DNA from: Eledone cirrhosa
Lineage: Eukaryota
Assembly: GCA_964016885.1 (NCBI GenBank)
Contig: OZ024765.1
Coordinates: 12,834,001 to 12,898,000, forward strand
Reading direction: 5' to 3'
Length of the DNA: 64,000 bases
Shown here piece by piece: positions 22,511 through 56,659 of the stretch. The first letter of the stretch is position 1. Each line of letters begins with the position of its first letter. Position numbers and translations under genes: made by a program. A model generated the notes under the pieces. It was given only the letters and a program-made list of their open reading frames with translations. It did not search any database and was not told the origin of the DNA.

Positions 22511-23066
22511 CTGGAGTAATGAAAAAAGTTGAGAAGAAAAATATATCTATATTGCTGGCTTTTTAGCTTCGGAAAATATCAGTAAATATAACACAAATAT
22601 ATATAAATATATATCATTTGAAGTTTGAAGGCCACGACAATGTGAAATGTATGAACAAGAATATAAGACAAAGTAAGATGTTATGTTTTATCTTATTTAT
22701 ATGTCCTGATATTTTGAGATAAAATCTCTTCTTCGGAGGGAAATAGCAAGGGACTAGTCCGGGTTTGATGAAATACGTTATATCTTGCTATTTCCGTCTA
22801 CAGAAGAGATTTTATCTCAAAATATCAGGACAGATAAATAAATATGGTAATACATAACATCTTGCTTCATCTTATTTTCTTGTTTGTTCATTTCACATTG
22901 TTGTGGCTTTCAAACTTTACATTTTATACACCATATGCAATGCTTCAAGCAAACTACAACTTCCTCCTATATATAAATGTTTTACTGTGTTGGCCATCAC
23001 ATAGAGTTATAGCCGACATGGACTGGAATTGAATTCTGTCAATCGATTGTTATTGATTAGGCAAAA

Positions 23067-23131
23067 TCCGCTGATGAAGCCATATGTCCATCCTATTACT
23101 GCATTAAATGTGGCTGAAGCTCGAGTTCAGG
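23067..23131 (+). ncRNA. Degenerate hammerhead (GAAA changed to GAAG)
   Basis: CTGATGA-agccatat...atgtggct-GAAG-ctcgag-TT-cagg; palindromic stem III, imperfect stem I. Confidence 0.55.
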
Positions 23132-24211
23132 TATAGATTGAAGGTACCCATTTACATGCGTTGTTTGAAGCAAATAACTATGTGTCTACTCTGGGACTTT
23201 ACTTAACATTACCTATTGAGTACACTGAGATTCAACCGGTACTAACAATGAGACCCATGCTAGTTCTGTTAACTTATTATAAATATATATTTAAAGGTGG
23301 TGAATTGGCAGAGTCACTAGAACGTTGGATAGAATACTTTGCAGTGTTTGTTCAGGCTCTCTGTGTTCAAATCTCGCTGGGGGTCAAGTTTGCTTTTCAT
23401 CATTTGGAGGGTGATAAAAAAAAGTACCAGTTTATTACTGTAGTTGATTCTTTATTTATATCTCTTTCTATCCTTCTCTGGAAGAAATCTGCTTGTTCAG
23501 TCCTGGAGAAGGGTGGGCTCTTCCAGGCTTAAAAAATGTCGAAGAAACGCTGTATGCTACTATGGCACCCCTATGACTCCATCAGGGTTACAGAACCATA
23601 TCAGTATATATATACTATACTTTGGGAGGGTCATGCTGCCAATAAAAACATACACATCTGTTAAATTTCACTTTGGTTTTATTATTAGGGTAGTGGTTTG
23701 GTAGAATTGGTAGAGCATCGGGCAAAATGCCATTGTGGTATTTGTTCTGATTCTTTACATTCTGGGTCCAAATCCTGCCAAAATCCACTTCACTTTTCAT
23801 TCTTCTGGGGTCGATAAATGAAAGGCACACATACTCTCCATAGGCTGTATATAGTGAAGGCAACCCATCTAGGAGAGCAGTTACTCTGAATAAAAACTGA
23901 TGCAGAGTAAAGAGGACCATTAAGTACTGTCAGAGAACCTCTCTAGTGACGGTGACACAATACTAAAAAATGTACCTAGGCCATGTTGTAAAGAGGTTGG
24001 TGATAGGAAGGGCAGCCATCCAGAAAACTTTACCAAAAACCATGAGTAACATCATCATCATCAAACTACCTATTAATCTAAGCAAGCATGGAATAGATAT
24101 TAAACAGTAATGATGATGATATGAAATAAAATAAATGCTGGAAAATAGTAAATTTAGTAAAAAAAAAAAATAAATAAATAAATAAGTCAAAGAAAGAAAA
24201 AATATGTATAC

Positions 24212-24299
24212 CAATAGCCAGGATTTTGCCTTCGAGGGCTTCAAGTCGGACTGGCTTCCCAACAGGTTGAAGTAGGGACCATAGACCGTGAACTCCCAT
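24212..24299 (-). CDS. ERCC5: XPG/ERCC5 coding exon 1 (MGVHGLWSLLQPVGKPVRLEALEGKILAI)
   Basis: Canonical Rad2/XPG N-terminus MGVxGLW; ATG at 24299-24297; 88 nt, phase-1 donor G|GTATAC; polypyrimidine+CAG acceptor just upstream (exon starts at 24312), so a 5' UTR exon lies further upstream. Confidence 0.95.
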
Positions 24300-26683
24300 T
24301 GGTAAAGTGAATCTGAAAAACAAAACATAGGTGCAGGGATAGCTGTGTGTATGTGTGGTGTTGATGGTGGTGGAGGAGGGCTAAAGACTTTGCAAAGCTT
24401 CACTGGTGGTTTAATTTTATCGACCTCGGAACGATGAAAGACAAAGTTGACCTTGGAGGAGGGGCTGTGATAAGAAGTACCCAGGAGTACACTTTGTAAT
24501 GAGTTGCGGGATCCAACGGAGACTATATGGGGATAAAGAGGGTTTTTTAGTCTGGCTGAGGATATAACAACCTCTGTAGTGTTGGGGCCATGATAAAATG
24601 CACCCAGTAGACTCTGTAATGGTTTAAAGAAGGAGCCATGATAAAATACTCCCAGTAAACACTGTAAAGTGGCAGTGTTGGCGCCATGATAAAATGCACC
24701 CAGTATACTCTGTAAAGAGGTAGCATTGGTGCTATGATAAAATACACCCATACACTTAGTAAAGTGGCAGTGCTGGAGCCATGATAAAATACACCCAGTA
24801 TACATACATATATATATAAGGGTAAAGGCCCCCTTCGGTCACGAATGACCATGGAATTTGCACCTAGAAAGTTCTCCTCCAAGGTACAGGTCTGGGCAAG
24901 GTTGTTTGTGGAAGACCAGAAGTCACCCATATATACCAAGGCAGTGGAGAAAAACCAGAGCCAGAGGGTGGTTGAAGGCAAGATGATGCAACAATCTGAC
25001 ACAATACCTTTTGCCCCACAGGGCCTAATATGGCCAGAGATAAGAAACAATTGAGGTCAACCAGGGAAGGCCCTGGATTTGGGATATGTACACATACGCA
25101 TCCAGCTGTAGAAAACACGCCAGACAGTCCACACTGTAATGTGGCCGTGTAGGCAACACGGTAAAAACCTCCCAGCCCCACACTGTAAATGTGGTTGGTG
25201 TTAGGAAGGGCATCCAGCTGTAGAAAACCCGCCAGACAGTCCTATGCGAGCAAGACAACCACTCTTGCCTCAAGTGGGGAAAACCCCCGTCCAAACCCAT
25301 GCAAGCGTGGAACAGGGACGTTAAACGATGATGATGATGATGACACACATACTCAACAGGCTCCTTACAGTTTCCATTTACCAAATACACTCACAATTGA
25401 ATCAAACGCTTTTGTCTTTGATAGAAAAAAAAAGTTAACTTAAAACTCATAAATTTCAGATAGAAATTGACTGAGGATAATGGCTCAGTGGGTATACACC
25501 TTGATTAAATGTTATAATGTATCTGTTTGATCATGGGTTCAATCCTCGATTGCAGTATTTATTTAATTCATTTTTTTTAAAACTTGGTAATGTTTAATGG
25601 CTAAGGGGTTGGGCAATGTCTTTGGCCATTACAGGCCTATTGCAGTCTAAACTATTGCAGCAGTACTCCTTCGAGGGGAAAACCCGACTACGAATCTTCT
25701 ACAGCCTGACCTCCTGGGTGTTGGACATAACACGATTGATGAGAGGTGAGGCGAGTACCTGGATGAGATCGGCTGGCGACTAGCAGGCTCCATGGAGCAG
25801 AGACAGGGGGCCACGTGAGTACTTGGATGAGGGCGGCTGGCGTCCAGCAGGCTCCAAGGACAGAGACCATTGTGGTAACATAAGAAGAGGGAGGCAGAAA
25901 ACAGCTCGTCTTGAGACAGACCAGAGAGGCTGGAAGCTGTCAAGAGAGTGACATCAAAAGCCGGTTAGCCGCGTGGATTTCTCTGGATCCAGTCTAAGAA
26001 GTCCATGTGTGCAAGCAAAACTAGCCGGGGCCTATATGTAGGAGGGAGCCATGTAACTATGACAACCAACGTCAGGTCATGTATTAATAAATCAGTTATA
26101 TACATATATATATGATCTCACGTCTAAACGACTTGAGCTCAACCGTTGAGCACTAAATATTTACAATATATATATATACGAACACACACACATATATATA
26201 TACTCAGGTTTAATGGCTAAATGGAATCACCGACGCACTTACAGGATCATCGAGTCTGTGAGTATCCAGGTGAAACTCTAGAGTAACAAGGCTCACCACT
26301 TAGCTATAATAAATGAACATTTAAACTCTACGCCGGTATTGAGTAGTCATTCTCACATGCGTTAATACACGGATATATATATATATATAGTGCACCTGAG
26401 CACTGTACACAATGATTTCATTATTATTATTATTATATATACACACACACACTTATATATAAATATAAATTCACCGATAATCGTATTTCGGTTGGTAGAA
26501 AAAGCGAAACGAAACGCAAAATCGTAGAAATGCTGGCAAGCGCTCCAATAGTTAAGAAAACTAGAGCTAAACAATATGTTAAAACGCCATACAAACTGAA
26601 AAGTGGTGAAGAAGGCATTAACCACCTAAGCCAAAAAACAAATCATGCTAAACAGGTCAAACAAAATATATAAAAATACTTAC

Positions 26684-26900
26684 AGCTGACATCCGAAGAA
26701 ATGTATTGTTTATTTGTGATTATAGCACTTTTGTAATCTTGCTGAGAGAAGATCTCTACTTCCGTTTCGATGCTTTGTATTAAAATCCCTTTGTAGTATA
26801 TGTCTTACCGGAATTGTCACTCTGGCCATCAGAACTCCAGTGAACGAGTGGTTTTTTCGTTGTACACACGTAACCAGAGATTCTAACAACCCAGAAATGT
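26684..26900 (-). promoter_or_regulatory. Candidate non-coding first exon / promoter of ERCC5
   Basis: Donor-like CT|GTAAGT at 26683; unique sequence with ETS-like CGGAAGT (about 26758-26764) and CCGGAA. The acceptor at 24313 requires an upstream exon. The start position is a guess. Confidence 0.45.
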
Positions 26901-28206: not shown

Positions 28207-28499
28207 CAGGCATGGGCAACCTTTTTCGAGAAGCGGGCCGCATGAGATAGGGCTCGTCATCAGGTAGGACGTAAGCACTAATTTACATTCGTGCCCACAT
28301 TAAAAAAAAAGGGAGGTAACTCAGGTTGTTTTGATTTGTTTCTTCAGAATTCGTACACGTTGTTTTCCTCGACCGTAAAAGTGATAGAAAGATAAATTAC
28401 GACTGAAAAGTCGGAGTAAAAAAAATCAGAAAGATTTCGCTTAGGTGACTTAGGCGAGCCATTCAGAAAGCTTCGCGGGTCGGAAGTTGCCCATGACTG
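28207..28499. mobile_element. Non-autonomous hAT (Charlie/Buster-like) element
   Basis: TIRs caggcatgggcaac / gttgcccatgactg; perfect 8-bp TSD atctacac at 28199-28206 and 28500-28507. Confidence 0.88.
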
Positions 28500-28831: not shown

Positions 28832-28912
28832 TACAGAGTGTCCGCCAAAAATGTATACATACTTCGACAGCATTCTAATAAATATATGTATATATTTTGG
28901 AGGGACACCCTA
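28832..28912. mobile_element. Tiny mariner-like MITE remnant
   Basis: Imperfect TIRs ta-cagagtgtccgccaaaaatgtataca / tgtatatattttggagggacaccct. Confidence 0.45.
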
Positions 28913-29082
28913 CACACACACACACACATATATATAAAGAGAGAGAGAGAGTGAGAGAAATATATATGTGTGTGTATATATATATGTGTGTGTATGTAAA
29001 AGATAAACAGAAATAACAACACAATCGGTACAGTATATGGAAGGAATATATTAGGTTAACGCTTGAAATAGCAGGAAGAGAG

Positions 29083-29118
29083 TCTTAACGTTTCGGAAGC
29101 CAGTCCTTCATCAGAAGA
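29083..29118 (-). ncRNA. Minimal hammerhead ribozyme motif
   Basis: tctt-CTGATGA-aggactggcttcc-GAAA-cg-TT-aaga; palindromic ACGT stem III. Confidence 0.78.
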
Positions 29119-29439
29119 AATAATGAGAAATTAGAAAGATTCACTGTGCTCGGGATGAAAAAGACAATCAAAATAAAAAATAAATAAATAAATCGGCTTT
29201 TCATAGCTATAATGTGTTGTGTGTACTTGACTGTATGTGTGTGTATAAGAAATTTATTGTAATTTTCTCCTCTCAGTCAAGTACATACAACATATTATAG
29301 TCATGAAAAGCTTGTTTATTTATTTATTTTTTATTTTTATTTTTATTGTCTTTTTCATCCCGAGCACAGTGACTTCAGGACCCTATTATATAACGGTTGT
29401 ATTGAACAAGTTGTAATTTCGGGGTGACATTTGACTGCG

Positions 29440-30173: not shown

Positions 30174-30217
<44 letters not shown>

Positions 30218-30382
30218 TATCCCGGGTTCAATCGGGGGTAACCATAGTAATTAAGGTACTCAATACATAGCAGTATATATATAAGTGTTTCCGTAGGAAA
30301 GGTAAGGGAAAGGAAATGAGAGTGCTCTATGTAGGCTACAGAGCTATTTAGTTATGTAATAAACAACATAAGACAATTATTC

Positions 30383-30449
30383 CATTTACCAAAGGTTTCA
30401 CGAAGACAGACGAGCTCGACAAAGACGTCTGAAATCGCTCATCAGAATG
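30383..30449 (-). ncRNA. Minimal hammerhead ribozyme motif in a PLE-related remnant
   Basis: catt-CTGATGA-gcga...tcgt-GAAA-cctttgg-TA-aatg; the 3' flank (aatggaataattg.cttatgttgtttattac ... tacatagagcactct) matches the large PLE 3' end. Confidence 0.82.
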
Positions 30450-31129
30450 AAATTTTATTTGAAGTGGATGTGAGATATGGATTTAAAAACAAGGGCTAAA
30501 ACAATTGAAAGCGAGGCTGATATAAAATAAAATAACGGACGTAATGTATTATTCCCCATTACATTACGTCCGTTATTTTATATCAGCCCCGCCTTAAATT
30601 ATTTTGGTCTTTGTTTTTAAATCCATATCTCACATCCACTTCAAATAAGAAGTCATTTTTCTCTATTTTCAAATACATCTTACTGTACCAAGTTATTTCC
30701 TTTATTTTCCGCTATTATAAATGGCGATACCTTTTAAATTATATTTTTTAATTTCTATTCTCCACGTAAAGGGACTTTTTTATTTGTATTATTCCTGAGG
30801 CGGTGATGAGTGAAATTACTTAATCAATCGAAATTAACGATTATTGATTACTTCTTCTGGTCACCTTAACGTCTGTGTAAATGAGGTGATTAATCTCATT
30901 TGCATATGAAGCTGTATAAATTGGCTCAACTTTTAATAGAATAGAATTGGAATTTAGCTTCGAGCGTAGCCGTATACAGATATGTATTGGAATTTCGTAT
31001 TTCTAAAGAAATACGGTATGGTTATAAATAAACATTTAAAAAGCCATAGCTATGCAAAAACACATCGACGATTGTCCCCCTTGCTTCTGCTGGACACCGC
31101 CAGGTGGCGATAGCATGCATGGTATAGTC

Positions 31130-31870: not shown

Positions 31871-33638
31871 TATATATAGCATATATATGTACAAAGCGAA
31901 ACTTAAAATCAGTAGGCACCTCTTAACCAAATATACACACCCATCCTACTACCCCTACTCCATCCTCCCACCCCCACCAACACCACCCCTTTCTCTAAAA
32001 AGTTATGTTGGTACCATAACATCCAGTCCAAAATAAATGAGGTCGTGTAGGTGTCACGACAAAAAAACATACAGTCCACGCTGTAATGTGGCAGTGTAGG
32101 TAACATGTTAAAAACCTCCCAGTCCACACTGTAAACATGGTTGGTGTTAGGAAGGGCATCCAGCTGTTAAAATCCTGCCAGACAGTCCCATACGAGCGAG
32201 ACATCGTCACCCGACCAATCTTGCCTCAAGTGGGACAATTCCCGTCTAAACCCATGCTAGCGTGGAGATAGACGTTAAATGATGATGATGATGATGATAT
32301 ATATATAGTATAAACAAAGTCTCATACCCTTAACATGTATGTGCTACCATTGGTATTTATAAATGGGGTTCCTCTGAAGGGTCTTTGGAGTAATATTACT
32401 AGATAGGGTCTGTAGTTCGGAGGTCAGAGAGCCACTACTTCTCTGCATTGGGATCACAGCTCTGGTACTATGGATATGTAGTTAGAATGTCTAAGGAAAG
32501 AATTCAGCTGAAATAGGGTTCCTCCGAAGGGTCTTTTGAGTAACGTTACTTGATTGTGTGTGTAACTCGGATATCAGGGAGTCACTCCAAGTAGAGTCAC
32601 TATTTCATTACCTCGAGATATCACAGATCTGATAGCACAGACAAAGTTTAGAATGTCTCAGGAAATAGTAGAGACCAGAATCACTGGACAGATTTTAAAA
32701 GCAAAGCCAACCAGCTGTAGATCCTGAGGTAGACCATGAGCAAGATGGTTGGATAGCATCCATAAGTTTGGTTGCCCTCACTTGAAGATCCAGCTGAATC
32801 ATTTGAAGAAGGTTTTATCTGATAGGACCCTCTCGATGCCTTGTCTGAGGAGTCTGTCCCCATGACCCTCTCAGGGATAAGTGAGTTAAGAAGAAAGGGT
32901 TTCATAACTGTATATCTGTCCTTCCTATCACCAATCACTTTATAGAATGGACTGGGTACATTTTCATGAAACCACCAGCACTAGGACTTAGGATCATAAT
33001 GTCATCGGTTCAATTCCTGGACTGGGTTGTGTGCTGTTCTTCAGCAAAACATTTCATATCACATTGCTTTAGTATACTCAGCTGAAAATGAGTACTAGCA
33101 GTAGCTGGGAGTTTAACCCTACAATGGACTGGCATCCTGTCCAGGGGGAAGTCTTGTACTCTCAGTTGCTTAACTTTTAGCACGCTAGTAATTTTTAGGA
33201 GTTGTTTCCCTTGATACTACATTAACTATTAAGGGGAGATTACTCTATGGTGTATTTGGTCACCTCCAGTGCTCTGAAGGTTAACATTACACAAACTGGG
33301 ATAAGCACCAGCCCGAATAGCCTCCAGATTCAAGGCAGACTTTAGACGAACTCTAGTGGTATCAACTGTTGGGTCTAAAGATTGTCCTCTAGCCTGTATT
33401 AGTTTTTTTTATTTCAGAGTTACTGTGTTCCTAGACAGGTTGCCTTTACTATGGCTTGCAGAGTCCTTGCCTTTTTTTTTACACTGCAGCAAAAAGAGCA
33501 TAAGGACCACACACCTTTGACATTACTGTATTGTATTCTAAGAACTAGTTCCAGAGTCATGGGTCCCTTAACCCTTTATCATTTACATTACTCTATATAT
33601 ACTATTGTATTTTTGAGGTAAAGGTTTTATCTCACATT

Positions 33639-35214: not shown

Positions 35215-35735
35215 CCTTTAGTATTTCAGTAATCAGAAGAAGGGAGGTAGGCATAAGAGCCAAACTTGCTGTCTTCAATTCGGTTTACGTGCCAACCCTT
35301 ACCTATGGTCATGAATCCTGGTAATGACTGAAAGAATATGATCACGAATACAAGCAGCCGAAATGGGGTTCCTCCGAAGGGTCTTTGGAGTAATGTTACT
35401 TGATAAAGTGTGTAGCTTGGAGATCAGAAAATCACTCCAAGCAGATTCGCTACTTCTCCGAATTGAGGGATCACATCTCCGATACTCAGGGCATGTGGTT
35501 AGAATGTCTCAGGAAATAATTGCTAGGCAGATCTTACAGGTGAAACCAACAGGTAGGACACCCAGGGGTAGACCCCAAGCAAGATGGTTGGATAACATCC
35601 ATGAGCTTGGCTGGTAATGCTTGGGGATCCAGCCAGATCAGTTGGAGACAGTTGCTTCTGACAGGACCCACTGGAGGGATGTTTGAGGACTCTGTCCCCA
35701 CGACCCTCTCAAGAATAAGTTGGCGAAGAAGAAGC
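35215..35735 (+). mobile_element. RTE-like LINE 3' fragment (second family)
   Basis: LTYGHESW, QAAEMGFLRRVFGV, GHVVRM, GRPQARW; related decayed pieces at 32350-32900 and 20615-20735. Confidence 0.75.
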
Positions 35736-37073
35736 ATTTACATTATTCTATATTTGCTATTGTATTTCATGGAAAACACTTTATTTCACATAATTATCTC
35801 ACATAACATCAAATTTATGAGATTTTGATATTATTTATTTTGAGAACAATATCTTAACATCATAAGTATGAGTAGCCAGTTACAGCTGGTTTGAATAGCA
35901 AAAGGTGAGATAATTCTGTCCAGATACGGCTGGTTTAAATGCTAAAGGGTTAAACCAGCTATGTTTGGCCAGAATTTTCACTTCTTTCTGTTCAAACCGA
36001 CCATAGCTGGCCACTTGTACTGATATTATGGTATTTTTCTCAAAATAAATATCAAAATCTCATAGATTCAATATTATGTGAGATAATTATGTGAGGTAAA
36101 GTGTTTACTGTGAAAATACCATAGTATATATATAGAGTAATGTAAATGATAGAGGGTGAAGCAAGTGATGTTTACCATAGCTTCAGGTCAACTTGTGCTT
36201 TATGAGCAGAATCATAACTAGGGAAAATAGCCCCAATGACAAGCAGTGAAATTACACCCCTGCCCAGCACTGTATTTCTACCTTTGGGCCTAATAATTTA
36301 TATAAATGGTTTAATCATCCAGCCACTGTAGTGTTCTCACCCGTGATAATCAGAGACACATCATACATCTGAAGCAGTTTCTTTTTTCACTCTCCGATGA
36401 GGCTTATTTGACTTTAATAGAACGTGACCCTAGTCCAAGTGGCGCCCCCTTTCAAGTGATACCCATGGCACGTGCCATACTTGTTTAGTGAATTGGTCAC
36501 AGGGTTATTTACTTTTGGTAAACGCCACTGCAGGCCAACCACTAATTAAATTCGATAAAGATATAATAAGGTTAACAAACTCGCTCATAAGTGAACTGTC
36601 CAAGAGCCGGTCGCCAAATAAGCCAAGATGTCTCTTTTCTCCCTCCTTTATAATCCCTAGACCGGAAGTTCAAGGAATCTTCTAGAATTCAACGGGAAGT
36701 AACTCCAATTAGTTTTTTCTCCCCGGGCAAGGTGGCGCGAGTCGCTACACTTGCTATACCCTAGTTAGACTTTTGCTTATGAGGGAAATTGGATAGATAG
36801 AAACTATTTGGAAGCCTGATGGATGGATTTTACCTTTAATTCAAAGGGCTTGCCTTGATGCACAGTCACACTGTATCATCTTCATCAAAGAGAATTATGT
36901 TAAGGATACACGAGTCTGTGGAATGCTCAGCCACCTAGTCAGTAATACAGTAGTAGTAGTAGTAGTAGTAGTAGTAGTTGTTTAAACCCAGGTCAACCAT
37001 GATTCAGCAGACCTATGATGAAAGGTAGTGTTAGCCATAATAATAGTTTCTGTTGTAGTACTGGTAATACTGT

Positions 37074-39085: not shown

Positions 39086-39592
39086 AGATTTAGTGGTAAG
39101 AGTGTGAGGATTATAGGCATATTTACAATATTTAACTTAAAACTTTTAATCAAATTTCCATTCAGTTTCTTTTCTTTTTTTTTCTTTTGTATTTTTTGTA
39201 TTTTTTGGTGGGGAGAGTACTTTTAATTTTTTTTTTTTTAATATATTTGTATTTATTTTATTGTTGTTCATTTTCTTTTGCTTTTCTTTTTGTTTATCTA
39301 TTTAACTAACACCCCTTCTCTCTTTCCTTTTATTTTATTTTTGTTTCGAGAGGGTATTTTTAATTTGTTTTTATTATTATTATTTTTGTTTTGTTTTTGT
39401 TGTTATTGTTTTATTTTTTGTTTTCCTATTTACTAACACTCCTTCTTTCTCTTTTTTCTCTTCCTAATTACAATTCCAGTTGTTGGTGTTTGGTAAACAA
39501 GAAGACCACATCCTTCTCTGCTTCATTATCTTTTTTACTACTACTACTACTACTACTACTATTATTACTATAATTACTATTAACTCCACAAC

Positions 39593-40000
39593 ATGAAGAA
39601 GTGCCACAGCGTAGACCAGCAGTACAGGGGTCGAGGTGGCGTTGTCTTACGCATGGCATTGCAGAGAAGCCAGAGTGAAAACCACAACGATAGTGACAGC
39701 TTTGGTGGCAGTGGTGATGGCTTGATGGAAAACGCAGACTTCCATTCTTGCATGCTGCTGCCGTACGACGAAGAAATTGCAGAGATGAAGAGATCCGTGG
39801 AAAAGATCCTGGGTGAGGTGAAATCCGAGTACCACGAACCCCTGGCGTTGGAAACTGACTTGCGGAGTTTCGAGGAACCACTTCTTCGGTTGAGAACTTT
39901 CTTGGAGAATAACCAGGACCCTCCCAATAGTTCAGCTCCTGCAGTCAATGGACCTTGTAAGGACCCTATACAGGCACTGAGGGCATTTCTTGATCGTTAA
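39593..40000 (+). CDS. Hypothetical 135-aa protein (family not recognised)
   Basis: Non-repetitive, GC-elevated ORF; strong acceptor upstream (TACTAAC 39431-39437, pyrimidine tract, CAG ending 39479); CAACATG start with an in-frame TAA 12 nt upstream. Confidence 0.65.
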
Positions 40001-43895: not shown

Positions 43896-43920
43896 GGCTG
43901 GAGTAGGTTTTACTATATAT

Positions 43921-45013
43921 TTAGGTAAGGCGGGTCTTCTCTGTTACTGAGTACCGCCAAAGGTCTCGGTCCAGTGACATTGTCTTGGAGAGGTGTAAGT
44001 GTGTGATGTCGGAGTTTATCAGCTCGTCCCAGGTTTTTCTAGGTCTGCCTATTCCGTGACTACCGTCTATCTTTATTGCCCTGCACTTTGTTATACAGCT
44101 ATCGACTTTCATGCGCATCACGTGTCCATACCAACGTAGCCTTCTCTCGAGTAAACAACATCTGATCCCTCTTATCTCTAATTTTTTCCTTAGTTCGTTT
44201 ATGCTTTGCCGTTCACGTATATTACTGTTACACATCCAGCGGAGCATGCAAGCTTCGTTCCTCTCTAGTCTGCGTATATCCTCTGCACACAATGCCCAGG
44301 TCTCACTGCCATGCAGCATTGTTGTTCGTATGCAGGCATCGTACAACCTGCCTTTCATTTTTAGTGAGAACCCTTTAGCAGCTAATAGTGGTATAAGCTC
44401 TCTGAACTTTTTCCAACCAGTTCTGACTCTAGCTACAGTACTTTCAGAGCACCCTCCCCCACTGCTGATTTTATCGCCCAGGTAACGGAAGCTGTCCACT
44501 ATTTCTATAGAACCCTCTGCGCAATTGAAAGAGCTAGTATTTTGTGGGCACTTGCTGCTACTTATTGCACCAGAGCACCGGCCACATGTAAAATCTATGT
44601 TCTTAGTTAGCTTACCTGTGATCCCACTACATCTTTTATGCACCCATACTTTGCATTTAGGACATAAAATGGAGTTTCTACCTACGCCTTTCCTACACAC
44701 CGAGCACGACCATTTCCCAGAAGGGACCGCCGCCTTGTTTTCTTTCCTACAAACTAGTACTTTGGTCTTAGCCAGGTTAATTTTAAGTCCTTTTGACTCT
44801 AGGCCGTGCTTCCATGTTTGGAATTTCTTCTCTAGCTCGGCCATTGATTCCGCTATGAGTGTCAGGTCGTCTGCGTATAGGAGTTCCCATGGGCAGCCTG
44901 TCTTGAACTCCTCTGTTATAGCCTGAAGGGCAATAATAAATAGTAGTGGGCTGAGAACAGAGCCCTGATGGACGCTAACTTTTACGCTAAACTCTTCACT
45001 ATATTCGTTGTTA

Positions 45014-45017
<4 letters not shown>
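43921..45017 (-). mobile_element. RTE-clade LINE, 5'-truncated, with an uninterrupted RT C-terminal ORF
   Basis: HQGSVLSPLLF, LLYADDL, FRYLG, RRLRWYGHVMRM, GRPRKTW; Cys/His cluster inside the RT. Confidence 0.9.
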
Positions 45018-45052
<35 letters not shown>

Positions 45053-45084
45053 ATTATGTAATAAACAACATAAGGCAATTATTC

Positions 45085-45138
45085 CATTTACCAGTGGTTT
45101 CTTAAAAGCAAAAGGTTTTGCTTTCAATCCTCAGAATG
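45085..45138 (-). ncRNA. Hammerhead ribozyme motif, mirror copy in the inverted arm
   Basis: Reverse complement of 50788-50841. Confidence 0.8.
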
Positions 45139-45351
45139 AAAAATCCTGGTTTGTTTATTGAATATGGATTCTAAAAACGAAAATGCAATCTATATGAAAG
45201 TGAGGCTGGAAAAGGGAGAAGGAAAGGAAAAATAAAATAAAATAAAACTACACATGCAAACACACACAAAAAAACCCAAAAACCATACTTACACACACAC
45301 ACATATATACACATATAATTTGCACGCATACACATATACACATACACATAC

Positions 45352-45412
<61 letters not shown>

Positions 45413-45513
45413 CACATACATACACATATATATATATAAAGAGCGTACACCTACACACACATACACATATATATACACACATATACACATACATATATTC
45501 ATACATACACACG

Positions 45514-45551
<38 letters not shown>

Positions 45552-45638
45552 TATATATACACATGTACATATCCATACATATATATATATATATATATAC
45601 ATATATATACACATACATATACACACATATACACATAT

Positions 45639-45676
<38 letters not shown>

Positions 45677-46074
45677 GTGTGTACAAGCCTACACATACAC
45701 ACACACATATATATACACACACATATATACATACATTCACACAAACATACAACGTACATACATACACATACATGAATGCACTCCACTACATATTAACACA
45801 CGCAAATAAATATAAGAAAAAAATATATAAATAATATTAACAAATATTTGACAGCGATACATGCCCCAGCTAACAGGACAGACACGCGTGGTAAGTAATA
45901 CACACATAAGCGCATATACATACGTTCGAAATAGTAAACACATACACACACTCTCACACATAAATATACATATACAAATACATAAACACGTACATACACA
46001 TACATACGCAAACACGTACACGTATACAATATAAACACACACATGTATATGTAATTATATACACACACACACAC

Positions 46075-46131
<57 letters not shown>

Positions 46132-46412
46132 CAAAAATATAAAAATATAAACGCACACACACATATAAATACGTAAACACACATATACATACATAGCTAA
46201 ACAATTATACACATGCAAATACGTATATATCAAAAGAACGCACAACCAAATACAAACACACACACATATATACACACACACACACCCACACACAAACCCA
46301 CACATACATAAAAATAAATAAAAACACACGCAACATATACATACATACACGTACATATACATATATACATACATACATATACATATATATATATACACAC
46401 ATATATACACAA

Positions 46413-46446
<34 letters not shown>

Positions 46447-46590
46447 ACGTACACATACACACATGCATACACATACACACACACATATACATGTGTGTAT
46501 GTGTAAAGCTCAGTATTAGATAAGACAAATGAACCTTACATAAACGTATATATAGTAGTAAAGTAATAAAGCCATACAAGGCAATTAATC

Positions 46591-46644
46591 CATTCACCAG
46601 AGGTTTCTTAAAAGCAAAAAAAGTTTCCTTCAATCTTCAGAATG
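46591..46644 (-). ncRNA. Hammerhead-like motif, mirror of the proximal copy
   Basis: Reverse complement of 49286-49339. Confidence 0.65.
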
Positions 46645-47127
46645 AAATATACAAATATATACACACATACAGACACGCACACACACATATATATATATAT
46701 ACATATATATATACATGTACATATATATATATATATATATATACAGACATATATACATACACACATATACACACACATACACATACACACATACATACAC
46801 ATATATATACATACACAAACATATACGTACACATATACATATATACACACAAAAATACATACACATACACATAGGTATGTGAAGGGCAAAACAAAAAGAA
46901 TATATGGGGTGGGGGGGCCTAGAGGAGGTAAAAATATAAAGGGAGGTAAGGGAGAAAAAAAAATATATTTTATAAATACAAGAGTACAGAAGGTAGAAGC
47001 AGCAAAATAAAAGCCGTAGCAAAATTTTCAAACTAAACTTTCTCACGATATCTCTAATTTTAGAAATTCTACAAACACTTTTGTTCTTTCTGATAAAACC
47101 AAAAACCTCTTTGAAGTTAATAGTAAT

Positions 47128-48885
47128 TTGTATAACCAACTTTTAACTAATAGTATTACCAATAAATATCAATTAACTAATAATAATAGCTACAATACTA
47201 TCAATAAAGAAGCTAAAGAACTAGCTAGTTCTTTACAAATAGATAACCGGATTGAAAGCTTAGCTAAGCGTAAAGCATATATTACCCTTAAAGACCATAA
47301 ATTGGACTTTACTAATCGACCTAGTTGTAGACTGATTAACCCGGCTAAATCCGAGGTTGGCCTTGCTAGTAAGAAAATCTTAAGAAAAATAATTATCCAA
47401 ATTAGAACTAACACTGTCCTTTCACAGTGGCTAAATACTTCCTCTGTTATTTCTTGGTTCAATAATATACAAGGTAAAAATAAGTGTAGATTTACGCAAT
47501 TTGATATTGTCGATTTTTACCCTTCTATTACCGTTTCCTTATTAACTAAAGCCTTAGATTTTGCAAGACCCTTCATTAATATCTCCAAATTAGAAGAGGA
47601 CATTATCTTTCATGCCAGAAAAACTTTACTTTTTACTAATGATAAGATTTGGGTTAAAAAGTCAAACCCTGAAAACTCTTTCGATGTTGCAATGGGTTCT
47701 TATGACAGTGCGGATGTGTGCGACTTAGTAGGATTATTCCTTCTCCACACACTCAAAGAGAAATTTCCGTCCCATAATATCGGTTTATACCGTGATGACG
47801 GATTAGCAGTTTCTCATACCACCAATGGCCATAATCTTGATAAATTCCGTAAAGATTTAATTAGTACCTTTGCTAATCTTAACCTTAAAATTACTATAGA
47901 TACGAACCTTACTAATGCTAACTTTCTTGATATTAATCTTGATCTACTTACTGCCTCTTTTAAACCCTATCATAAACCTAATGAAAATCTTAGGTATATA
48001 CACAAAGAGTCTTGCCATCCCCCTATAGTTTTTAATAATCTTATTCCTAACATTAGCCGTAGGATTTCTACTTTATCTTCGTCTATAGACATTTTTAATA
48101 AAGCCGCCCCTTATTATAATAAAGCCCTTAAGAACAGCGGTTTTACAGAAAATATTTCTTATTTACCTATTCCCCCCCCTAAAACTAACCATAATAACAG
48201 GAAAAGGAAGATTATTTGGTTCACACCCCCCTTCTCTCTAAATGTCAAAACTAATGTAGGAAGGAAATTCCTTGAACTATTAGACAAACATTTTCCTCCT
48301 ATTCATAGATATTATAAGATTTTTAATAGGAATGTAGTTAAGATCAGCTACTCTTGTTGTCCATCCATGAAATCCAAAATCACCAGTTCAAACCGTACGA
48401 GGATAAATCCAGGATGCAGTTGCAGGAAGCCGGATGAATGCCCATTGCAGGGTAAATGTAAAACAAAATCTGTCGTTTATGAGGCTAAAATAACGCCAGT
48501 TATCAACAACCAGCCAGCCAGAAGCGAGCGATATGTCGGTATGACCCAGGACAGGTTTAAAACCAGATTTTACTCACATGTCGCTTCTTTTAAACACTCA
48601 GATAAACGAACATCAACGGCCCTCGCAAGTAAGGTATGGGATCTCAAGGATAGTAATATCCCGTACTCTATTGATTGGTCTATATTAGACCATTCGAGGG
48701 AGTACCAAAGGGGCACAAAGAATTGTTCTTTGTGTACCACAGAAAAGTATAGGATTTTGCTAAACTTGAGAGACACTTCCGCTTGCCTTAACTCTAAGAC
48801 TGAGATCTTCAGATGCTGTCCTCATCTGAAATCGCATCTGATCTGTAACTGGATTGACACTCCTACGATAAATCAACCGCCTTGA
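47128..48885 (+). CDS. PLE reverse transcriptase + C-terminal GIY-YIG endonuclease (N-terminally truncated)
   Basis: RT motifs QFDIVDFYPSI, AMGSYDSADVCDLVG, GLYRDDGL; linker CSCRKPDECPLQGKC; endonuclease VVY...YVG...RFKTRFYSH...CSLCTTEK...LN...CPH. The frame stays open back to the inversion junction at about 47025 (NFQTKLSHDI...SDKT), so the TTG start is not the real start. Confidence 0.93.
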   Translation: MYNQLLTNSITNKYQLTNNNSYNTINKEAKELASSLQIDNRIESLAKRKAYITLKDHKLDFTNRPSCRLINPAKSEVGLASKKILRKIIIQIRTNTVLSQWLNTSSVISWFNNIQGKNKCRFTQFDIVDFYPSITVSLLTKALDFARPFINISKLEEDIIFHARKTLLFTNDKIWVKKSNPENSFDVAMGSYDSADVCDLVGLFLLHTLKEKFPSHNIGLYRDDGLAVSHTTNGHNLDKFRKDLISTFANLNLKITIDTNLTNANFLDINLDLLTASFKPYHKPNENLRYIHKESCHPPIVFNNLIPNISRRISTLSSSIDIFNKAAPYYNKALKNSGFTENISYLPIPPPKTNHNNRKRKIIWFTPPFSLNVKTNVGRKFLELLDKHFPPIHRYYKIFNRNVVKISYSCCPSMKSKITSSNRTRINPGCSCRKPDECPLQGKCKTKSVVYEAKITPVINNQPARSERYVGMTQDRFKTRFYSHVASFKHSDKRTSTALASKVWDLKDSNIPYSIDWSILDHSREYQRGTKNCSLCTTEKYRILLNLRDTSACLNSKTEIFRCCPHLKSHLICNWIDTPTINQPP

Positions 48886-49285
48886 ACTCCTTCTCTGCTC
48901 TTTACTTTTGCTACGGCTTTTATTTTGCTGCTTCTACCTTCTGTACTCTTGTATTTATAAAATATATTTTTTTTTCTCCCTTACCTCCCTTTATATTTTT
49001 ACCTCCTCTAGGCCCCCCCACCCCATATATTCTTTTTGTTTTGCCCTTCACATACCTATGTGTATGTGTATGTATTTTTGTGTGTATATATGTATATGTG
49101 TACGTATATGTTTGTGTATGTATATATATGTGTATGTATGTGTGTATGTGTATGTGTGTGTATATGTGTGTATGTATATATGTCTGTATATATATATATA
49201 TATATATATGTACATGTATATATATATGTATATATATATATATGTGTGTGTGCGTGTCTGTATGTGTGTATATATTTGTATATTT

Positions 49286-49339
49286 CATTCTGAAGATTGA
49301 AGGAAACTTTTTTTGCTTTTAAGAAACCTCTGGTGAATG
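49286..49339 (+). ncRNA. Hammerhead-like motif (PLE, proximal copy; cleavage triplet ends in G)
   Basis: catt-CTGAAGA-stem-GAAA-cctctgg-TG-aatg; paralogue of 50788-50841. Confidence 0.7.
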
Positions 49340-49483
49340 GATTAATTGCCTTGTATGGCTTTATTACTTTACTACTATATATACGTTTATGTAAGGTTCA
49401 TTTGTCTTATCTAATACTGAGCTTTACACATACACACATGTATATGTGTGTGTGTATGTGTATGCATGTGTGTATGTGTACGT

Positions 49484-49517
<34 letters not shown>

Positions 49518-49798
49518 TTGTGTATATATGTGTGTATATATATATATGTATATGTATGTATGTATATATGTATATGTACGTGTATGTATGTATATGTTGC
49601 GTGTGTTTTTATTTATTTTTATGTATGTGTGGGTTTGTGTGTGGGTGTGTGTGTGTGTATATATGTGTGTGTGTTTGTATTTGGTTGTGCGTTCTTTTGA
49701 TATATACGTATTTGCATGTGTATAATTGTTTAGCTATGTATGTATATGTGTGTTTACGTATTTATATGTGTGTGTGCGTTTATATTTTTATATTTTTG

Positions 49799-49851
<53 letters not shown>

Positions 49852-50249
49852 GTGTGTGTGTGTGTATATAATTACATATACATGTGTGTGTTTATATTGT
49901 ATACGTGTACGTGTTTGCGTATGTATGTGTATGTACGTGTTTATGTATTTGTATATGTATATTTATGTGTGAGAGTGTGTGTATGTGTTTACTATTTCGA
50001 ACGTATGTATATGCGCTTATGTGTGTATTACTTACCACGCGTGTCTGTCCTGTTAGCTGGGGCATGTATCGCTGTCAAATATTTGTTAATATTATTTATA
50101 TATTTTTTTCTTATATTTATTTGCGTGTGTTAATATGTAGTGGAGTGCATTCATGTATGTGTATGTATGTACGTTGTATGTTTGTGTGAATGTATGTATA
50201 TATGTGTGTGTATATATATGTGTGTGTGTATGTGTAGGCTTGTACACAC

Positions 50250-50287
<38 letters not shown>

Positions 50288-50374
50288 ATATGTGTATATG
50301 TGTGTATATGTATGTGTATATATATGTATATATATATATATATATATGTATGGATATGTACATGTGTATATATA

Positions 50375-50412
<38 letters not shown>

Positions 50413-50513
50413 CGTGTGTATGTATGAATATATGTATGTGTATATGTGTGTATATATATGTGTATGTGTGTGTAGGTGTACGCTCTTTATATATATATAT
50501 GTGTATGTATGTG

Positions 50514-50574
<61 letters not shown>

Positions 50575-50787
50575 GTATGTGTATGTGTATATGTGTATGC
50601 GTGCAAATTATATGTGTATATATGTGTGTGTGTGTAAGTATGGTTTTTGGGTTTTTTTGTGTGTGTTTGCATGTGTAGTTTTATTTTATTTTATTTTTCC
50701 TTTCCTTCTCCCTTTTCCAGCCTCACTTTCATATAGATTGCATTTTCGTTTTTAGAATCCATATTCAATAAACAAACCAGGATTTTT

Positions 50788-50841
50788 CATTCTGAGGATT
50801 GAAAGCAAAACCTTTTGCTTTTAAGAAACCACTGGTAAATG
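50788..50841 (+). ncRNA. Minimal type I hammerhead ribozyme motif (PLE, distal copy)
   Basis: catt-CTGAGGA-ttgaaagcaaaa cc ttttgcttttaa-GAAA-ccactgg-TA-aatg: full core, three stems, near-palindromic stem III. Confidence 0.85.
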
Positions 50842-50943
50842 GAATAATTGCCTTATGTTGTTTATTACATAATAATAATAATTAAGCTCTGTTGCTTACA
50901 TAGAGCACTCTTTTTTCCTGGACTTTTCCGATGGAATTACTTC

Positions 50944-52066
<1,123 letters not shown>

Positions 52067-52344
52067 AGTCCTCCCCAGAGATCTAGATTCTACATTCTAC
52101 AGTATATCATTCTTCTCTCTTGTAAGTCTGTAAATACGATACTGCCAAATACTATACCTAATATGTATATTTCTATTAAGCCAGCTGGTTAATGCTGTAA
52201 TCCCTTCCTACAAGATGTTGTTGTCATCGTTATTGTTGTTATTGTTGTACCCATAATGAGAAATAAGAAAAGTTAATATTGTTAGAGCAATTCTGTTCAA
52301 AATGGGTAAGGGAGAGAACTTTCAGGTTTAAATCTATTAGTCTT

Positions 52345-54540
52345 GGTCTTAGGTTCTTCTGCAGCTTTCAGCACATCGAGCAGCAAGTAGTCGACACCGG
52401 TCACAATCAGCGGTGGCTATTTCGCGCCTGTACCAAGTGATGTTGGCTGCCACCAGGTCTTTTTGGGACGTTTGTCGCCAGGTGATCCTGGGGCAACCCT
52501 GCTTCCGTTTGCTGCCAGGTAGAGTCCAGTTCATCGCAGTTTTCGATTGCTGCCAGGTAGAGTCCAGTTCATCGCAGTTTTCGATTGCTGCCAGGTAGAG
52601 TCCAGTTCATCGCAGTTTTCGATTGCTGCCAGGTAGAGTCCAGTTCATCGCAGTTTTCGATTGCTGCCAGGTAGAGTTCAGTTCATCGCAGTTTTCGATT
52701 GCTGCCAGGTAGAGTTCAGTTCATCGCAGTTTTCGATTGCTGCCAGGTAGAGTCCAGTTCATCGCAGTTTTCGATTGCTGCCAGGTAGAGTCCAGTTCAT
52801 CGCAGTTTTCGATTGCTGCCAGGTAGAGTCCAGTTCATCGCAGTTTTCGATTGCTGCCAGGTAGAGTGCAGTTCATCGCAGTTTTCGATTGCTGCCAGGT
52901 AGAGTTCAGTTCATCGCAGTTTTCGATTGCTGCCAGGTAGAGTCCAGTTCATCGCAGTTTTCGATTGCTGCCAGGTGGAGTCCAGTTCATCGCAGTTTTC
53001 GATTGCTGCCAGGTGGAGTCCAGTTCATCGCAGTTTTCGATTGCTGCCAGGTGGAGTCCAGTTCATCGCAGTTTTCGATTGCTGCCAGGTAGAGTGCAGT
53101 TCATCGCAGTTTTCGATTGCTGCCAGGTAGAGTCCAGTTCATCGCAGTTTTCGATTGCTGCCAGGTAGAGTCCAGTTCATCGCAGTTTTCGATTGCTGCC
53201 AGGTAGAGTCCAGTTCATCGCAGTTTTCGATTGCTGCCAGGTAGAGTCCAGTTCATCGCAGTTTTCGATTGCTGCCAGGTAGAGTGCAGTTCATCGCAGT
53301 TTTCGATTGCTGCCAGGTAGAGTCCAGTTCATCGCAGTTTTCGATTGCTGCCAGGTAGAGTCCAGTTCATCGCAGTTTTCGATTGCTGCCAGGTAGAGTG
53401 CAGTTCATCGCAGTTTTCGATTGCTGCCAGGTAGAGTCCAGTTCATCGCAGTTTTCGATTGCTGCCAGGTAGAGTCCAGTTCATCGCAGTTTTCGATTGC
53501 TGCCAGGTAGAGTCCAGTACATCGCAGTTTTTGATTGCTGCCAGGTAGAGTGCAGTTCATCGCAGTTTTCGATTGCTGCCAGGTAGAGTCCAGTTCATCG
53601 CAGTTTTCGATTGCTGCCAGGTAGAGTCCAGTTCATCGCAGTTTTCGATTGCTGCCAGGTAGAGTCCAGTTCATCGCAGTTTTCGATTGCTGCCAGGTAG
53701 AGTTCAGTTCATCGCAGTTTTCGATTGCTGCCAGGTAGAGTCCAGTTCATCGCAGTTTTCGATTGCTGCCAGGTAGAGTCCAGTTCATCGCAGTTTTCGA
53801 TTGCTGCCAGGTAGAGTCCAGTTCATCGCAGTTTTCGATTGCTGCCAGGTAGAGTCCAGTTCATCGCAGTTTTCGATTGCTGCCAGGTAGAGTCCAGTTC
53901 ATCGCAGTTTTCGATTGCTGCCAGGTAGAGTGCAGTTCATCGCAGTTTTCGATTGCTGCCAGGTAGAGTCCAGTTCATCGCAGTTTTCGATTGCTGCCAG
54001 GTAGAGTTCAGTTCATCGCAGTTTTCGATTGCTGCCAGGTAGAGTCCAGTTCATCGCAGTTTTCGATTGCTGCCAGGTAGAGTCCAGTTCATCGCAGTTT
54101 TCGATTGCTGCCAGGTAGAGTCCAGTTCATCGCAGTTTTCGATTGCTGCCAGGTAGAGTCCAGTTCATCGCAGTTTTCGATTGCTGCCAGGTAGAGTGCA
54201 GTTCATCGCAGTTTTCGATTGCTGCCAGGTAGAGTCCAGTTCATCGCAGTTTTCGATTGCTGCCAGGTAGAATGCAGTTCATCGCAGTTTTCGATTGCTG
54301 CCAGGTAGAGTCCAGTTCATTGCAGTTTTCGAGTGTCATTCGTTGGGCAGGCACAGAATATGGCCAGCAAGGCAGCACCGTCGCTCCGTAACCACTCTCT
54401 TCAGGGTGACCAGTAGATAGTATCAGCAATGGAAAGACCAATAGAAACCTTGTTTCCCTAGTCTGATATGATGAGCTCCGGCCAACTCAGTAAACAAATG
54501 AGGTCTGGGTTCTTGTTGATCCATTTACCATTTTAAATTT
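52345..54540 (-). mobile_element. LINE 3' fragment interrupted by an internal 38-bp tandem array
   Basis: GHILCLPNE..KTAMNWTLPGSKRKQGCPRITWRQT reads across the array once extra units are removed. Confidence 0.75.
52509..54332. repeat. 38-bp tandem array (~48 copies)
   Basis: Unit ttgctgccaggtagagtccagttcatcgcagttttcga; variation almost limited to gtcc/gttc/gtgc. Confidence 0.97.
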
Positions 54541-56659
54541 GGAAAATCCCATCTCCTCTCCATATTGAACACGGTTGATTTTTTTCTAAAGAAGGTGAAA
54601 GTGATAGAGAGGAAGAGAGAAAGAGATATAGAGACAGAATCAACCCCCAGTACTAGACTGGTACTTTTTTTATTGACCTCAATAGAATTAAAAGCAAAGT
54701 TGACTTCAGCAGCTTTTGAATTTAGTGAGTGCAGAGAGCCAAAACAAATACTGCAAAGTATTGTCTTTCATTCTTCCAGGGTCAATAAAATAAAGTTATA
54801 GTCAAGTACTCATTAAAAAATGCTGAAATATCAATTTAAAGACTCATTCTCTTTTATATACATATAATCAGTAATCATTTTACGTCCGCTTTTCCCTGCT
54901 TGCAAGGGTGGGACGGTAACTGATTCTGACTTGATTTCTACAGCTGGATGCCCTTCCTAACACCAACCACATTTACAGTGAATGGTGGGTGCTTTTTTGC
55001 CGTGGCGCCTACACATCCACTTTACAGTGTGGGCTGGGTGCTTTTTGCCGTGGCACCTCCACGACTACTTTGCAGTGGAATGATAGGGACCCCAGTCCTA
55101 TCATCTCATTTCTACAGCTGAGTAAACTGGAGCAATGTGAAATAAAGTGTCTTGCTCAAGGAAGCAACACATCAGACCGGGTGATGTGTTGTTTCCTTGA
55201 GCAAGACACTTTATTTCACATTGCTCCAGTTTACTCAGCTGTAGAAATGAGATGATAGGGACTGGGGTCCCTATCATTCCACTGCAAAGTGGTCGTGGAG
55301 GTGCCACGGCAAAAAAGCACCCACCATTCACTGTAAATGAGGTTGGTGTTAGGAAGGGCATCCAGCTGTAGAAATCAAGCCAGAATCAGTTCCCGTCCCA
55401 CCCTTGCAAGCAGGGAAAAAGCGGACGTAAAATGAAATGATGATGATGATGATGATATAGGAACGAGTAGGGCACCGATGGCTGAGCTCAAGACGCTTTG
55501 ACAGCTAATCCTGGATTAAATGATTTTAGTCTAGTCCAGAATTAGCTGCCGAAGTGGCTTGAGCTCAGCCATCGGGGTCCTACTCGCTCCTATTACCCAC
55601 TCTGCTACCCTAAGTATTGAGTACTTTGGTGCGTTATGGTCCATCTGCTTCCTTACCACATTTCCTTTGTTATATATATATATATATATATATATAAAAA
55701 CCAGGTCTGAATACAAAAGAACCAAACTGTCACTGCTTCCGTCTCTCTCACTATTGTGAGCAAATGGGGTCAACACGCTGCCCCCCCCCCCCCCCCCCCC
55801 CAAGGCAGACAGAATAGAGAAGTACTGAAGCCGACTTAATCAACTTTCTCTTCCCCTAAATTTCTGGCTTTGTACTGAAATAAGAAACCATTTATAACAT
55901 GTTTTTTGTGTTTAATCCCCACGAAGGTCGTGTTGACTTGAAAATAGATTATTTAGTTGTAGAAGCCATAAATATAAGAATTTTGGGATTTTAGTAATAA
56001 TATAATGGTTTCTTATATAGGCACAAGGCCTGCAATTTTGGGGGAGGGGAAAGTCGATTAAATCGACTCCAGTGCGTGACTGGTACTTTATTTTATCGAC
56101 CGCGCAAGGATGGAAGGCAAAGTTAACCTCGGCGGGATTTGAACTCAGATAGTAAAGGGCCGTAACTCTATGCTGCAAAGCATGGCGTCCGAACCTCTAC
56201 CTATACTGCCAATCCACCGCCCTTATAGCAGTAATAATATAATGATAATAATAATTGTTTCTACTTTTGGCACAAGGCCAGCAATTATCCCAGTACATTA
56301 CTGGTACTTTATTTTATCGACCTCGTAAGGATGAAAGGCAAAGTGATGGTGATGGTGATGATGGATGTATTACTGGTGGGAATGGTAGAGAGTGATAGTG
56401 GTAGTGGCACCCCGAGCAGGTATTTGTTCCAGTTTCAGTGGTGTTAAGCAACTAAAAATACAAGATTTCCCCCCTGGTCAGGACACCAGTATATCACAAA
56501 TCTGCAGGCTCATCAGACTGGCATTTAACCCTGTTTTATTGGTGTTAAGGAACTGAGAGTACAGGACTTATCCCTGGACAGGACACCAGTCTGTCACAGA
56601 GGTTAAGTCTGTCACAAGCCCCCAGACTCATCAGGTTGGATGTTTATCTTAATTTTATT

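Follow-up and report, generated by a model that had tools for sequence, protein, structure and literature searches.

Hairpin insertions of Penelope-like elements in the octopod Eledone cirrhosa pair a long with a short outer end

Hairpin-shaped insertions in the genome of Eledone cirrhosa were analysed from a 64,000-nucleotide stretch of assembly GCA_964016885.1 (contig OZ024765.1, positions 12,834,001 to 12,898,000 of the forward strand; called the window, in whose numbering coordinates are given) and from related copies elsewhere in the same genome. The hairpins are probably insertions of Penelope-like elements (PLEs), each formed by two target-primed reverse transcriptions on the RNA of one donor that are end-joined. 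Two fixed outer ends are observed, and nearly every insertion has one of each; the inner breakpoints vary, either arm can be the longer, the arms share a donor, and (TA)n lies at both ends. The evidence comes from a large element (45046-50943, plus strand) and its family, and from five short families (s1, s1b, s2, s3 and s4) found at four further sites of the window.

Two outer ends are paired in the large family

The full unit of the large family, as represented by an actual copy, measures 4253 bp, with a 710-residue open reading frame (ORF), a 2-kb microsatellite-rich 3′ untranslated region (UTR) and two hammerhead motifs. In a protein search of the species' own genome, 148 of 43,407 candidates scored, the best with 100% identity. 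A total of 79 stretches were fetched around the best 68 of these 148 matches and 18 further 3′-end matches; five overlapping pairs were merged and the window was added, giving 75 loci. Fifty-three loci are head-to-head, 21 are single-orientation and 1 is mixed. The polarity claimed in a preliminary description of the window holds far outside it, with 53 head-to-head loci against at most 1 tail-to-tail.

The outer ends fall at two fixed reference positions, 4253 (long) and 4190 (short). The short end thus lies 63 bp inside the long end, and the ends abut (TA)n in nearly all loci, in agreement with the siting described earlier. In 8 of the 53 head-to-head loci, one end is unreadable because of a gap, a further insertion or the edge of the stretch. 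The 45 loci with both ends readable comprise 43 long/short, 2 long/long and no short/short pairs (at L199 the adjacent segment was taken as the right arm, not an older 63-bp piece 700 bp away). Within the subset selected by ORF, for which the tail played no part in the choice, 32 of 34 pairs are long/short (p = 7e-8 against a 50:50 choice). The inner breakpoints are scattered across kilobases and differ among copies, as had been claimed for the fold-back points. The 53 junctions show overlap in 20, a blunt joint in 10 and inserted bases in 23, figures that are approximate since they derive from BLAST edges.

Arm lengths and a common donor

The preliminary description explained the inversions by a snap-back, in which a single target-primed reverse transcription takes place and the reverse transcriptase (RT) routinely switches onto its own nascent cDNA at the truncation point and copies back. 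Under this model, the second arm would have to be contained in the first, and the tail could not come from a cDNA that started at the short site, which means that the tailed arm ought to be the longer in every pair. It extends further 5′ in only 22 of 43 pairs, whereas the tail-less arm does so in 21 of 43; in 19 of the 43 its lead exceeds 100 bp, with a maximum of 6.3 kb. In at least five pairs (L232, L277, L283 and two of s4), no sequence is common to both arms, one of which is a tail-only piece and the other a tail-less arm facing it. The copied-back arm would moreover have to halt at the same site inside the element in 43 of 45 loci, and the short site is also where five single-orientation copies end. 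What a snap-back does account for is the common donor of the arms, the surplus of almost perfectly palindromic junctions in s3 and s4, the short templated insertions at several junctions, and the lack of the fixed short end at site 3 of the window and four other loci. Snap-back is therefore not the rule: as the main route it is refuted by the arm lengths, and it may survive as a minor route, so that as a general explanation it is improbable. A negative correlation of arm lengths in the large family (rho -0.37) was set aside as a selection effect.

Both arms derive from one donor. Compared with the other sampled arms, the two arms of a pair are mutual nearest matches in 23 of 30 and 19 of 25 pairs at two microsatellite tracts. 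Variants present in both arms are 9 synonymous to 9 non-synonymous and those in a single arm 4 to 22 (p = 0.02), so that the both-arm variants look inherited, not converted. At the head-to-head locus L214, an identical internal deletion of about 2.4 kb occurs in both arms, again indicating one donor. These variants and the one-of-each ends speak against two unrelated insertions, or the RNAs of two donors, placed back to back in one (TA)n hot spot, as do the scarcity of tail-to-tail pairs (53 to at most 1) and the lack of a TA tract between the arms at most junctions. TA tracts do stack insertions (window sites 1 and 3, L308), and the arms of the long/long locus L224 resemble other copies more than each other. 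Back-to-back insertion is accordingly unlikely except at the rare long/long loci, and as a general account it is very improbable.

A different origin has been suggested by Arkhipova 2013 and Craig 2021 (PMC3846280, PMC8557442; here and below, statements on papers cited by PMC number refer to excerpts of them), namely that an antisense template primes itself and the resulting palindromic intermediate is cut by the endonuclease at two staggered sites, so that one side keeps a tail. Either arm could then carry the tail, each insertion would have one of each end, and a common donor and palindromic junctions would be expected. Editing of the antisense template could also give the skew of sense-strand substitutions towards T>C and C>T (both-arm variants 18:2, multi-locus variants 24:4), although part of this skew is due to pyrimidine-rich third codon positions (65%). 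However, self-priming cannot yield non-overlapping tail-only arms, single-orientation copies end at either site, and the ends of the tail correspond to RT start sites on sense RNA in vitro (PMC11167929). We regard this origin as unlikely. The skew itself, which counts both-arm plus multi-locus variants, amounts to 42 inherited T>C and C>T substitutions on the sense strand against 6 purine transitions and is stronger than third-position composition suggests.

Proposed paired target priming

The pattern of ends in the genome suggests the following route. The enzyme of the element would nick both target strands within (TA)n, and each nick would prime reverse transcription on RNA from one and the same donor. 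Two RT active sites, probably those of a dimer, would start at two sites on the RNA, long and short. Each reaction may stop on its own or both at a shared stop, and end joining (by microhomology, blunt or with templated insertions) would then link the 3′ ends of the two cDNAs. Survival of a single cDNA would leave a plain 5′-truncated copy with either end.

In the twin priming of LINE-1 (L1), the second target strand likewise primes a second cDNA, and end joining of the two gives an inversion. The internal position at which the second L1 primer anneals varies, and the resulting pieces are mostly non-overlapping. In the present insertions the two starts have fixed places near the 3′ end, and the product is therefore palindromic, unlike that of L1.

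Another counterpart is the Poseidon element PAc of the anole (Frangieh et al. 2024, PMC11167929). On AT-rich DNA in vitro, its protein nicks each of the two strands and extends it, two internal RT start sites on the sense RNA bound the tail, and the protein is predicted to be a dimer (PMC11167929). PAc belongs to a different clade, and in the excerpt its in vitro results are not applied to inverted insertions. The Eledone set adds at least dozens of near-identical insertions resolved by long reads, whose ends discriminate between the models and match the only in vitro data. Such a clean in vivo pairing rule makes the mechanism of PLE inversion testable.

Short families

Thirty loci were sampled for each short family. 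With incidental copies in all fetched DNA included, s4 has 41 long/short and 1 long/long pairs and s3 has 18 and 2, counts from which short/short pairs are partly excluded, as both queries contained the tail. The s1b family, queried without its tail, also has two end classes; 11 of its 30 loci are head-to-head, of which 7 are clean long/short pairs, 1 is ambiguous and 3 have a shortened partner. The claim that several families form such insertions is thus upheld for the large family, s3, s4 and s1b. The distance between the two outer ends is about 45-80 bp, depending on the family. The s2 and s3-like ends follow diverged PLE ORF matches at a distance of 160-1300 bp (L324, L150, L199, L222), and no convincing PLE ORF link was found for s1, s1b or s4. 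A further 97 'solo' s3 ends near -112 are cross-matches to the large family and were disregarded.

The tail in the s3 and s4 queries weighs against paired priming, and so do the points that follow. No adjacent inversion lies within 150 bp in any of the 30 loci of s1 or the 30 of s2 (at one duplicated s1 locus an inversion lies farther off), and head-to-head behaviour is therefore dependent on the family. Five inverted arms lack the fixed short end (site 3, L177, L267, L281 and L286); these could be true snap-backs or later deletions. Near-symmetric junctions exceed the number expected under independence in s4 (21 versus 14.7, p = 0.005) and s3 (8 versus 3.6, p = 0.004), while the large family has no significant excess (p about 0.13); the excess fits a shared RNA 5′ end or stop and also some fold-back. 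At a third microsatellite tract of the large family, the arms are mutual nearest matches in only 14 of 31 pairs. Finally, no strand difference in start site was seen for the anole protein in vitro (PMC11167929), and the strict long/short pairing is therefore left unexplained by the anole data.

The 5′ ends of both s4 arms cluster at a distance of 135-145 bp from the 3′ end, immediately ahead of a U-rich stretch, and s3 arm ends cluster at 160-177, partly through query selection. Three ideas on s4 were rejected. Truncation at the hammerhead cleavage site seemed enriched on inspection, but only about 5 of 109 s4 arm ends lie within 3 bp of it, roughly as many as at neighbouring positions. The s4 hairpin is not the native helix II, as long copies have a short helix II with a different loop. 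Nor are s4 hairpins copied as whole units, since the junctions differ between copies. The window also holds s2 fragments at 5261-5332 and 8727-8810 and a hammerhead-like core at 28263 (minus strand), all without hairpins.

Anatomy of the large element

The large element is inserted at a (TA)n target tract (45018-45045), which borders the outer end of the tail-less arm. This arm (45046-47024, minus strand) is inverted, covers reference positions 4190 to 2274 and contains mirror copies of both hammerheads. A 2-bp overlap (47023/47024) joins it to the 5′-truncated PLE ORF (47023-48885, plus strand), which begins at about residue 91 of 710 and forms a 621-codon open frame between the arms; contigs of four runs did not bridge the junction, which is uninformative. 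The microsatellite-rich 3′ UTR (48886-50880, plus strand) includes the direct arm (48906-50880) and is followed by a 63-bp tail, present at this end only (50881-50943, plus strand), and by a (TA)n-rich tract (50944-52066). The inverted repeat measures 1979 bp with 99.8% identity and a spacer of about 1.88 kb.

One hammerhead lies in each arm, at 45134 on the minus strand and at 50792 on the plus strand. The unduplicated portion is therefore the tail, not the ribozyme. A stem search predicts a type I hammerhead at 50785-50844 (plus strand), with a 7-bp helix I, an intact core, a 12-bp helix II and a minimal helix III; the same search predicts one near the 3′ end of s3, whereas the hammerheads of s1, s1b, s2 and s4 were recognised by motif and are partly decayed. 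A hammerhead-like motif further upstream (49283-49342, plus strand) is predicted to be inactive because it has G at the cleavage position, in breach of the NUH cleavage rule for hammerheads. When five hammerheads were folded as single sequences, the z-scores were weak (-1.2 to +1.2). An Rfam scan returned no hammerhead among the 150 of 226 matches listed, and its microRNA matches are driven by microsatellites.

The single ORF encodes an RT related to TERT, a CxCx5C linker as well as a C-terminal GIY-YIG endonuclease domain, as in endonuclease-bearing (EN+) PLEs. It carries the RWK and DKT motifs, lacks CCHH, and has CxxC and CxH beside the conserved E and N; the VVY...YVG motif was read in its sequence. 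D114 and K115 are invariant across 118 homologues. The structure predicted for the ORF (predicted local distance difference test, 94.8) has telomerases as all of its top nine PDB matches, and in a Pfam scan and a PDB sequence search the ORF matched no family. The RT and GIY-YIG ORF, the head-to-head units and the one-sided tail support the PLE origin proposed earlier. From its RT, linker and GIY-YIG motifs and its (TA)n insertion, the large element is assigned as a young PLE of the Hydra clade.

The Hydra clade of Craig et al. 2021 (PMC8557442) shares RWK, DKT, CxCx5C, the absence of CCHH, CxxC and CxH, the hammerhead and (TA)n with the large element. The unit of 4.25 kb is long compared with the families described there, generally below 3 kb, because of its 2-kb microsatellite 3′ UTR. 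The large family is very young and abundant here, and the excerpt of PMC8557442 has few Hydra families outside Cnidaria. The canonical PLE insertion unit has a partial tandem, an adjacent inverted 5′-truncated copy and a one-sided tail of 30-40 bp (PMC8557442, PMC3846280). Partial tandems, inverted 5′-truncated copies and one-sided tails occur here as well, and the whole architecture is alike, head-to-head polarity included, except that the tails are about 45-80 bp. Inverted copies, tails, the head-to-head bias, hammerheads and (TA)n have already been described (PMC8557442, PMC3846280, PMC4209133), and the origin of the inverted structures is called unresolved (PMC8557442, PMC3846280). The present insertions are thus a known PLE architecture in new Hydra-type families, although the 2021 and 2024 supplements may already list octopus Hydra families. 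Quantified beyond the canonical unit are the long/short pairing, the symmetry of arm lengths, the non-overlapping arms and the common donor. A literature search did not find the long/short pairing rule or the scale of the phenomenon stated, and older reviews or supplements may bear on the rule. Retrozymes that lack long terminal repeats (non-LTR retrozymes) are tandem non-coding units, each with a complete hammerhead (bioRxiv 10.64898/2026.07.22.740005); the five sites of the window are single or inverted 3′ ends and not tandem arrays.

Inverted repeats of the window

Self-comparison recovered all five inverted repeats that the preliminary description had listed, roughly where it had placed them, with arms of 62-1979 bp and spacers from 11 bp to about 1.88 kb, in keeping with its ranges. 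Its picture of an inversion on the 5′ side fits cleanly at 45046-50943 and 55457-55672 only; it fails at sites 1 and 2, and site 3 is atypical. Hairpins had also been placed 5′ of the hammerhead. The polarity stands relative to the tail, while the hammerhead lies mostly within the arms, one per arm.

Site 1 (arms 22610-22750/22784-22928, 121/141 identical, spacer 33) is two neighbouring insertions in one TA tract. The hairpin, 22616-22966, belongs to the separate tailed family s1b and consists of a tail-less inverted arm (22616-22762, minus strand) and an arm with a tail of about 45 bp that ends at TATATA (22785-22966, plus strand), and its arms contain a minimal hammerhead that is decayed. 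A separate s1 copy, 5′-truncated and in the same tract (22978-23277, plus strand), supplies the hammerhead at about 23070. At site 2 (29141-29233/29274-29372, 85/93 identical, spacer 40), the 3′ end of an s2 copy (28997-29141, minus strand; hammerhead core at 29114) is abutted exactly at its 5′ junction by a hairpin (29141-29372, no strand assigned) that is not s2 sequence, has the ends CACTG...CAGTG and retrieved only itself in a genome search. The hairpin-hammerhead link drawn earlier at sites 1 and 2 thus joins unrelated neighbours. As a separate observation, the site 1 hairpin sits between two XPG/ERCC5 exons and is probably intronic.

Site 3 (30446-30548/30560-30657, 88/98 identical, spacer 11) comprises a tailed s3 arm (30283-30548, minus strand; hammerhead core at 30445) and an inverted arm (30560-30657, plus strand) that ends before the usual s3 short end, with no (TA)n outside it. 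It is the sole site of the window that matches the snap-back as drawn in the preliminary description. The s3 3′ end is 80-84% like that of the large element. In the TA tract behind site 3 lies a tail-only fragment of another tailed family (30215-30272, minus strand), whose tail is also that of a hairpin at L320:1178. Site 4 (55457-55518/55532-55593, 53/62 identical, spacer 13) has a tail-less inverted s4 arm (55457-55518, minus strand) and an s4 arm with a 79-bp tail (55594-55672) that ends at (TA)n (55532-55672, plus strand). Its hammerhead is decayed, with the 3′ half only.

Tailed hairpins across the genome

A random sample of 40 regions of 10 kb (40 of 80 drawn; 400 kb) was searched for non-microsatellite hairpins with arms of at least 35 bp and spacers of at most 300 bp. 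An asymmetric signature was found in 21 of 47 hairpins: (TA)n adjoins one end directly, and at the opposite end it follows after 30-115 bp. These 21 come from 16 regions and represent about ten sequence families; one or two are possibly false, the 'tail' being a simple repeat. Random placement predicts 1.3, with a maximum of 7 in 2000 trials, and (TA)n directly abuts both ends in none of the 47. The scale of the genome-wide hairpin factory proposed earlier is therefore borne out. An intact hammerhead core faces the tail in 5 of the 21. Another core is found where a longer tail-less arm extends beyond its partner, in line with head-to-head polarity. Signature hairpins make up 12 of the 19 random hairpins with at least 90% self-identity. 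The extrapolated density of 52 per Mb corresponds to about 97,000-240,000 genome-wide, by Poisson limits that ignore clustering. The unnamed families of this sample are putative PLEs by their architecture, not by a linked ORF.

It is extremely unlikely that the short hairpins are miniature inverted-repeat transposable elements (MITEs) with terminal inverted repeats, or assembly artefacts. Their (TA)n flanks resemble the Tc1/mariner target, and 26 of the 47 random hairpins lack the asymmetric signature, some of them with seemingly fixed termini. The tailed families, however, have a one-sided tail and a junction that differs in each copy, where MITEs have fixed symmetric termini and a conserved interior. 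Non-inverted copies of the same sequence are common, hammerheads are present, and the large ends are linked to PLE ORFs, as the s3-like and s2 ends may be, in support of the earlier claim that these are not MITEs. Palindromes created by assembly would not respect family-specific ends. Target-site duplications are unreadable within (TA)n. PLE scars that look like MITEs are of relevance to annotation. At L308:5386-6860, three distinct tailed hairpin families are stacked in one TA-rich stretch, one of them with perfect 388-bp arms.

Double-stranded RNA and editing

Hairpin insertions would fold into double-stranded RNA (dsRNA) wherever they are transcribed, and tailed hairpins are a concrete candidate source of octopus dsRNA. 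O. bimaculoides has exceptional dsRNA potential and hyper-editing (PMC5625713); the repeat breakdown in the excerpt of that paper omits octopus, for which repeats had no annotation, and reports heavily edited lizard Penelope. The passages covered of PMC9989829 do not mention Penelope, and a literature search found no paper tying PLE hairpins to octopus editing. The asymmetric signature can be overlaid on existing octopus editing data. In a wider and rather doubtful reading, PLE integration would be obligatory paired priming by a dimer on one RNA, with one active site bound to the long start and the other to the short one, palindromes would be its normal product, and some 10^5 octopod hairpins, about half of the short-spaced inverted repeats, would be the main unexplained source of the exceptional dsRNA potential and adenosine-to-inosine (A-to-I) hyper-editing of octopus. 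Reinsertion of A-to-I-edited sense RNA was considered and rejected, there being no A>G excess (19 A>G versus 42 T>C; 0 of 40 both-arm variants).

Neighbouring features

XPG/ERCC5 host exons lie within 15721-24290 (minus strand), with an XPG_N match at 24170-24290; the exon at 15724-16788 has 53-55% identity to Octopus XPG. A 138-residue, exon-like open frame at 39584-40000 (plus strand) has no Pfam match. A non-LTR RT ORF fragment (43921-45017, minus strand; RVT_1 and PHD match) ends at the TA tract entered by the large PLE and does not resume after 52066. At 56420-60190 (minus strand) there are about 37 tandem copies of a unit of about 100 bp, in which a CTGATGA core is present and a 6-bp stem precedes a purine run. 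The unit has no convincing helix I or III, and part of it matches a dispersed repeat at 33127-33174; the array may be retrozyme-like or an amplified short interspersed element fragment. A symmetric fold-back family of about 420 bp (35735-36148, 61023-61447; more copies near 10015-10404, 21150 and 33789) has neither (TA)n nor a tail and is MITE-like. At 54875-55435 and L323:6494-6948, copies of a different repeat, one that ends in (ATG)n, are paired head-to-head, which suggests that another retroelement also forms such pairs.

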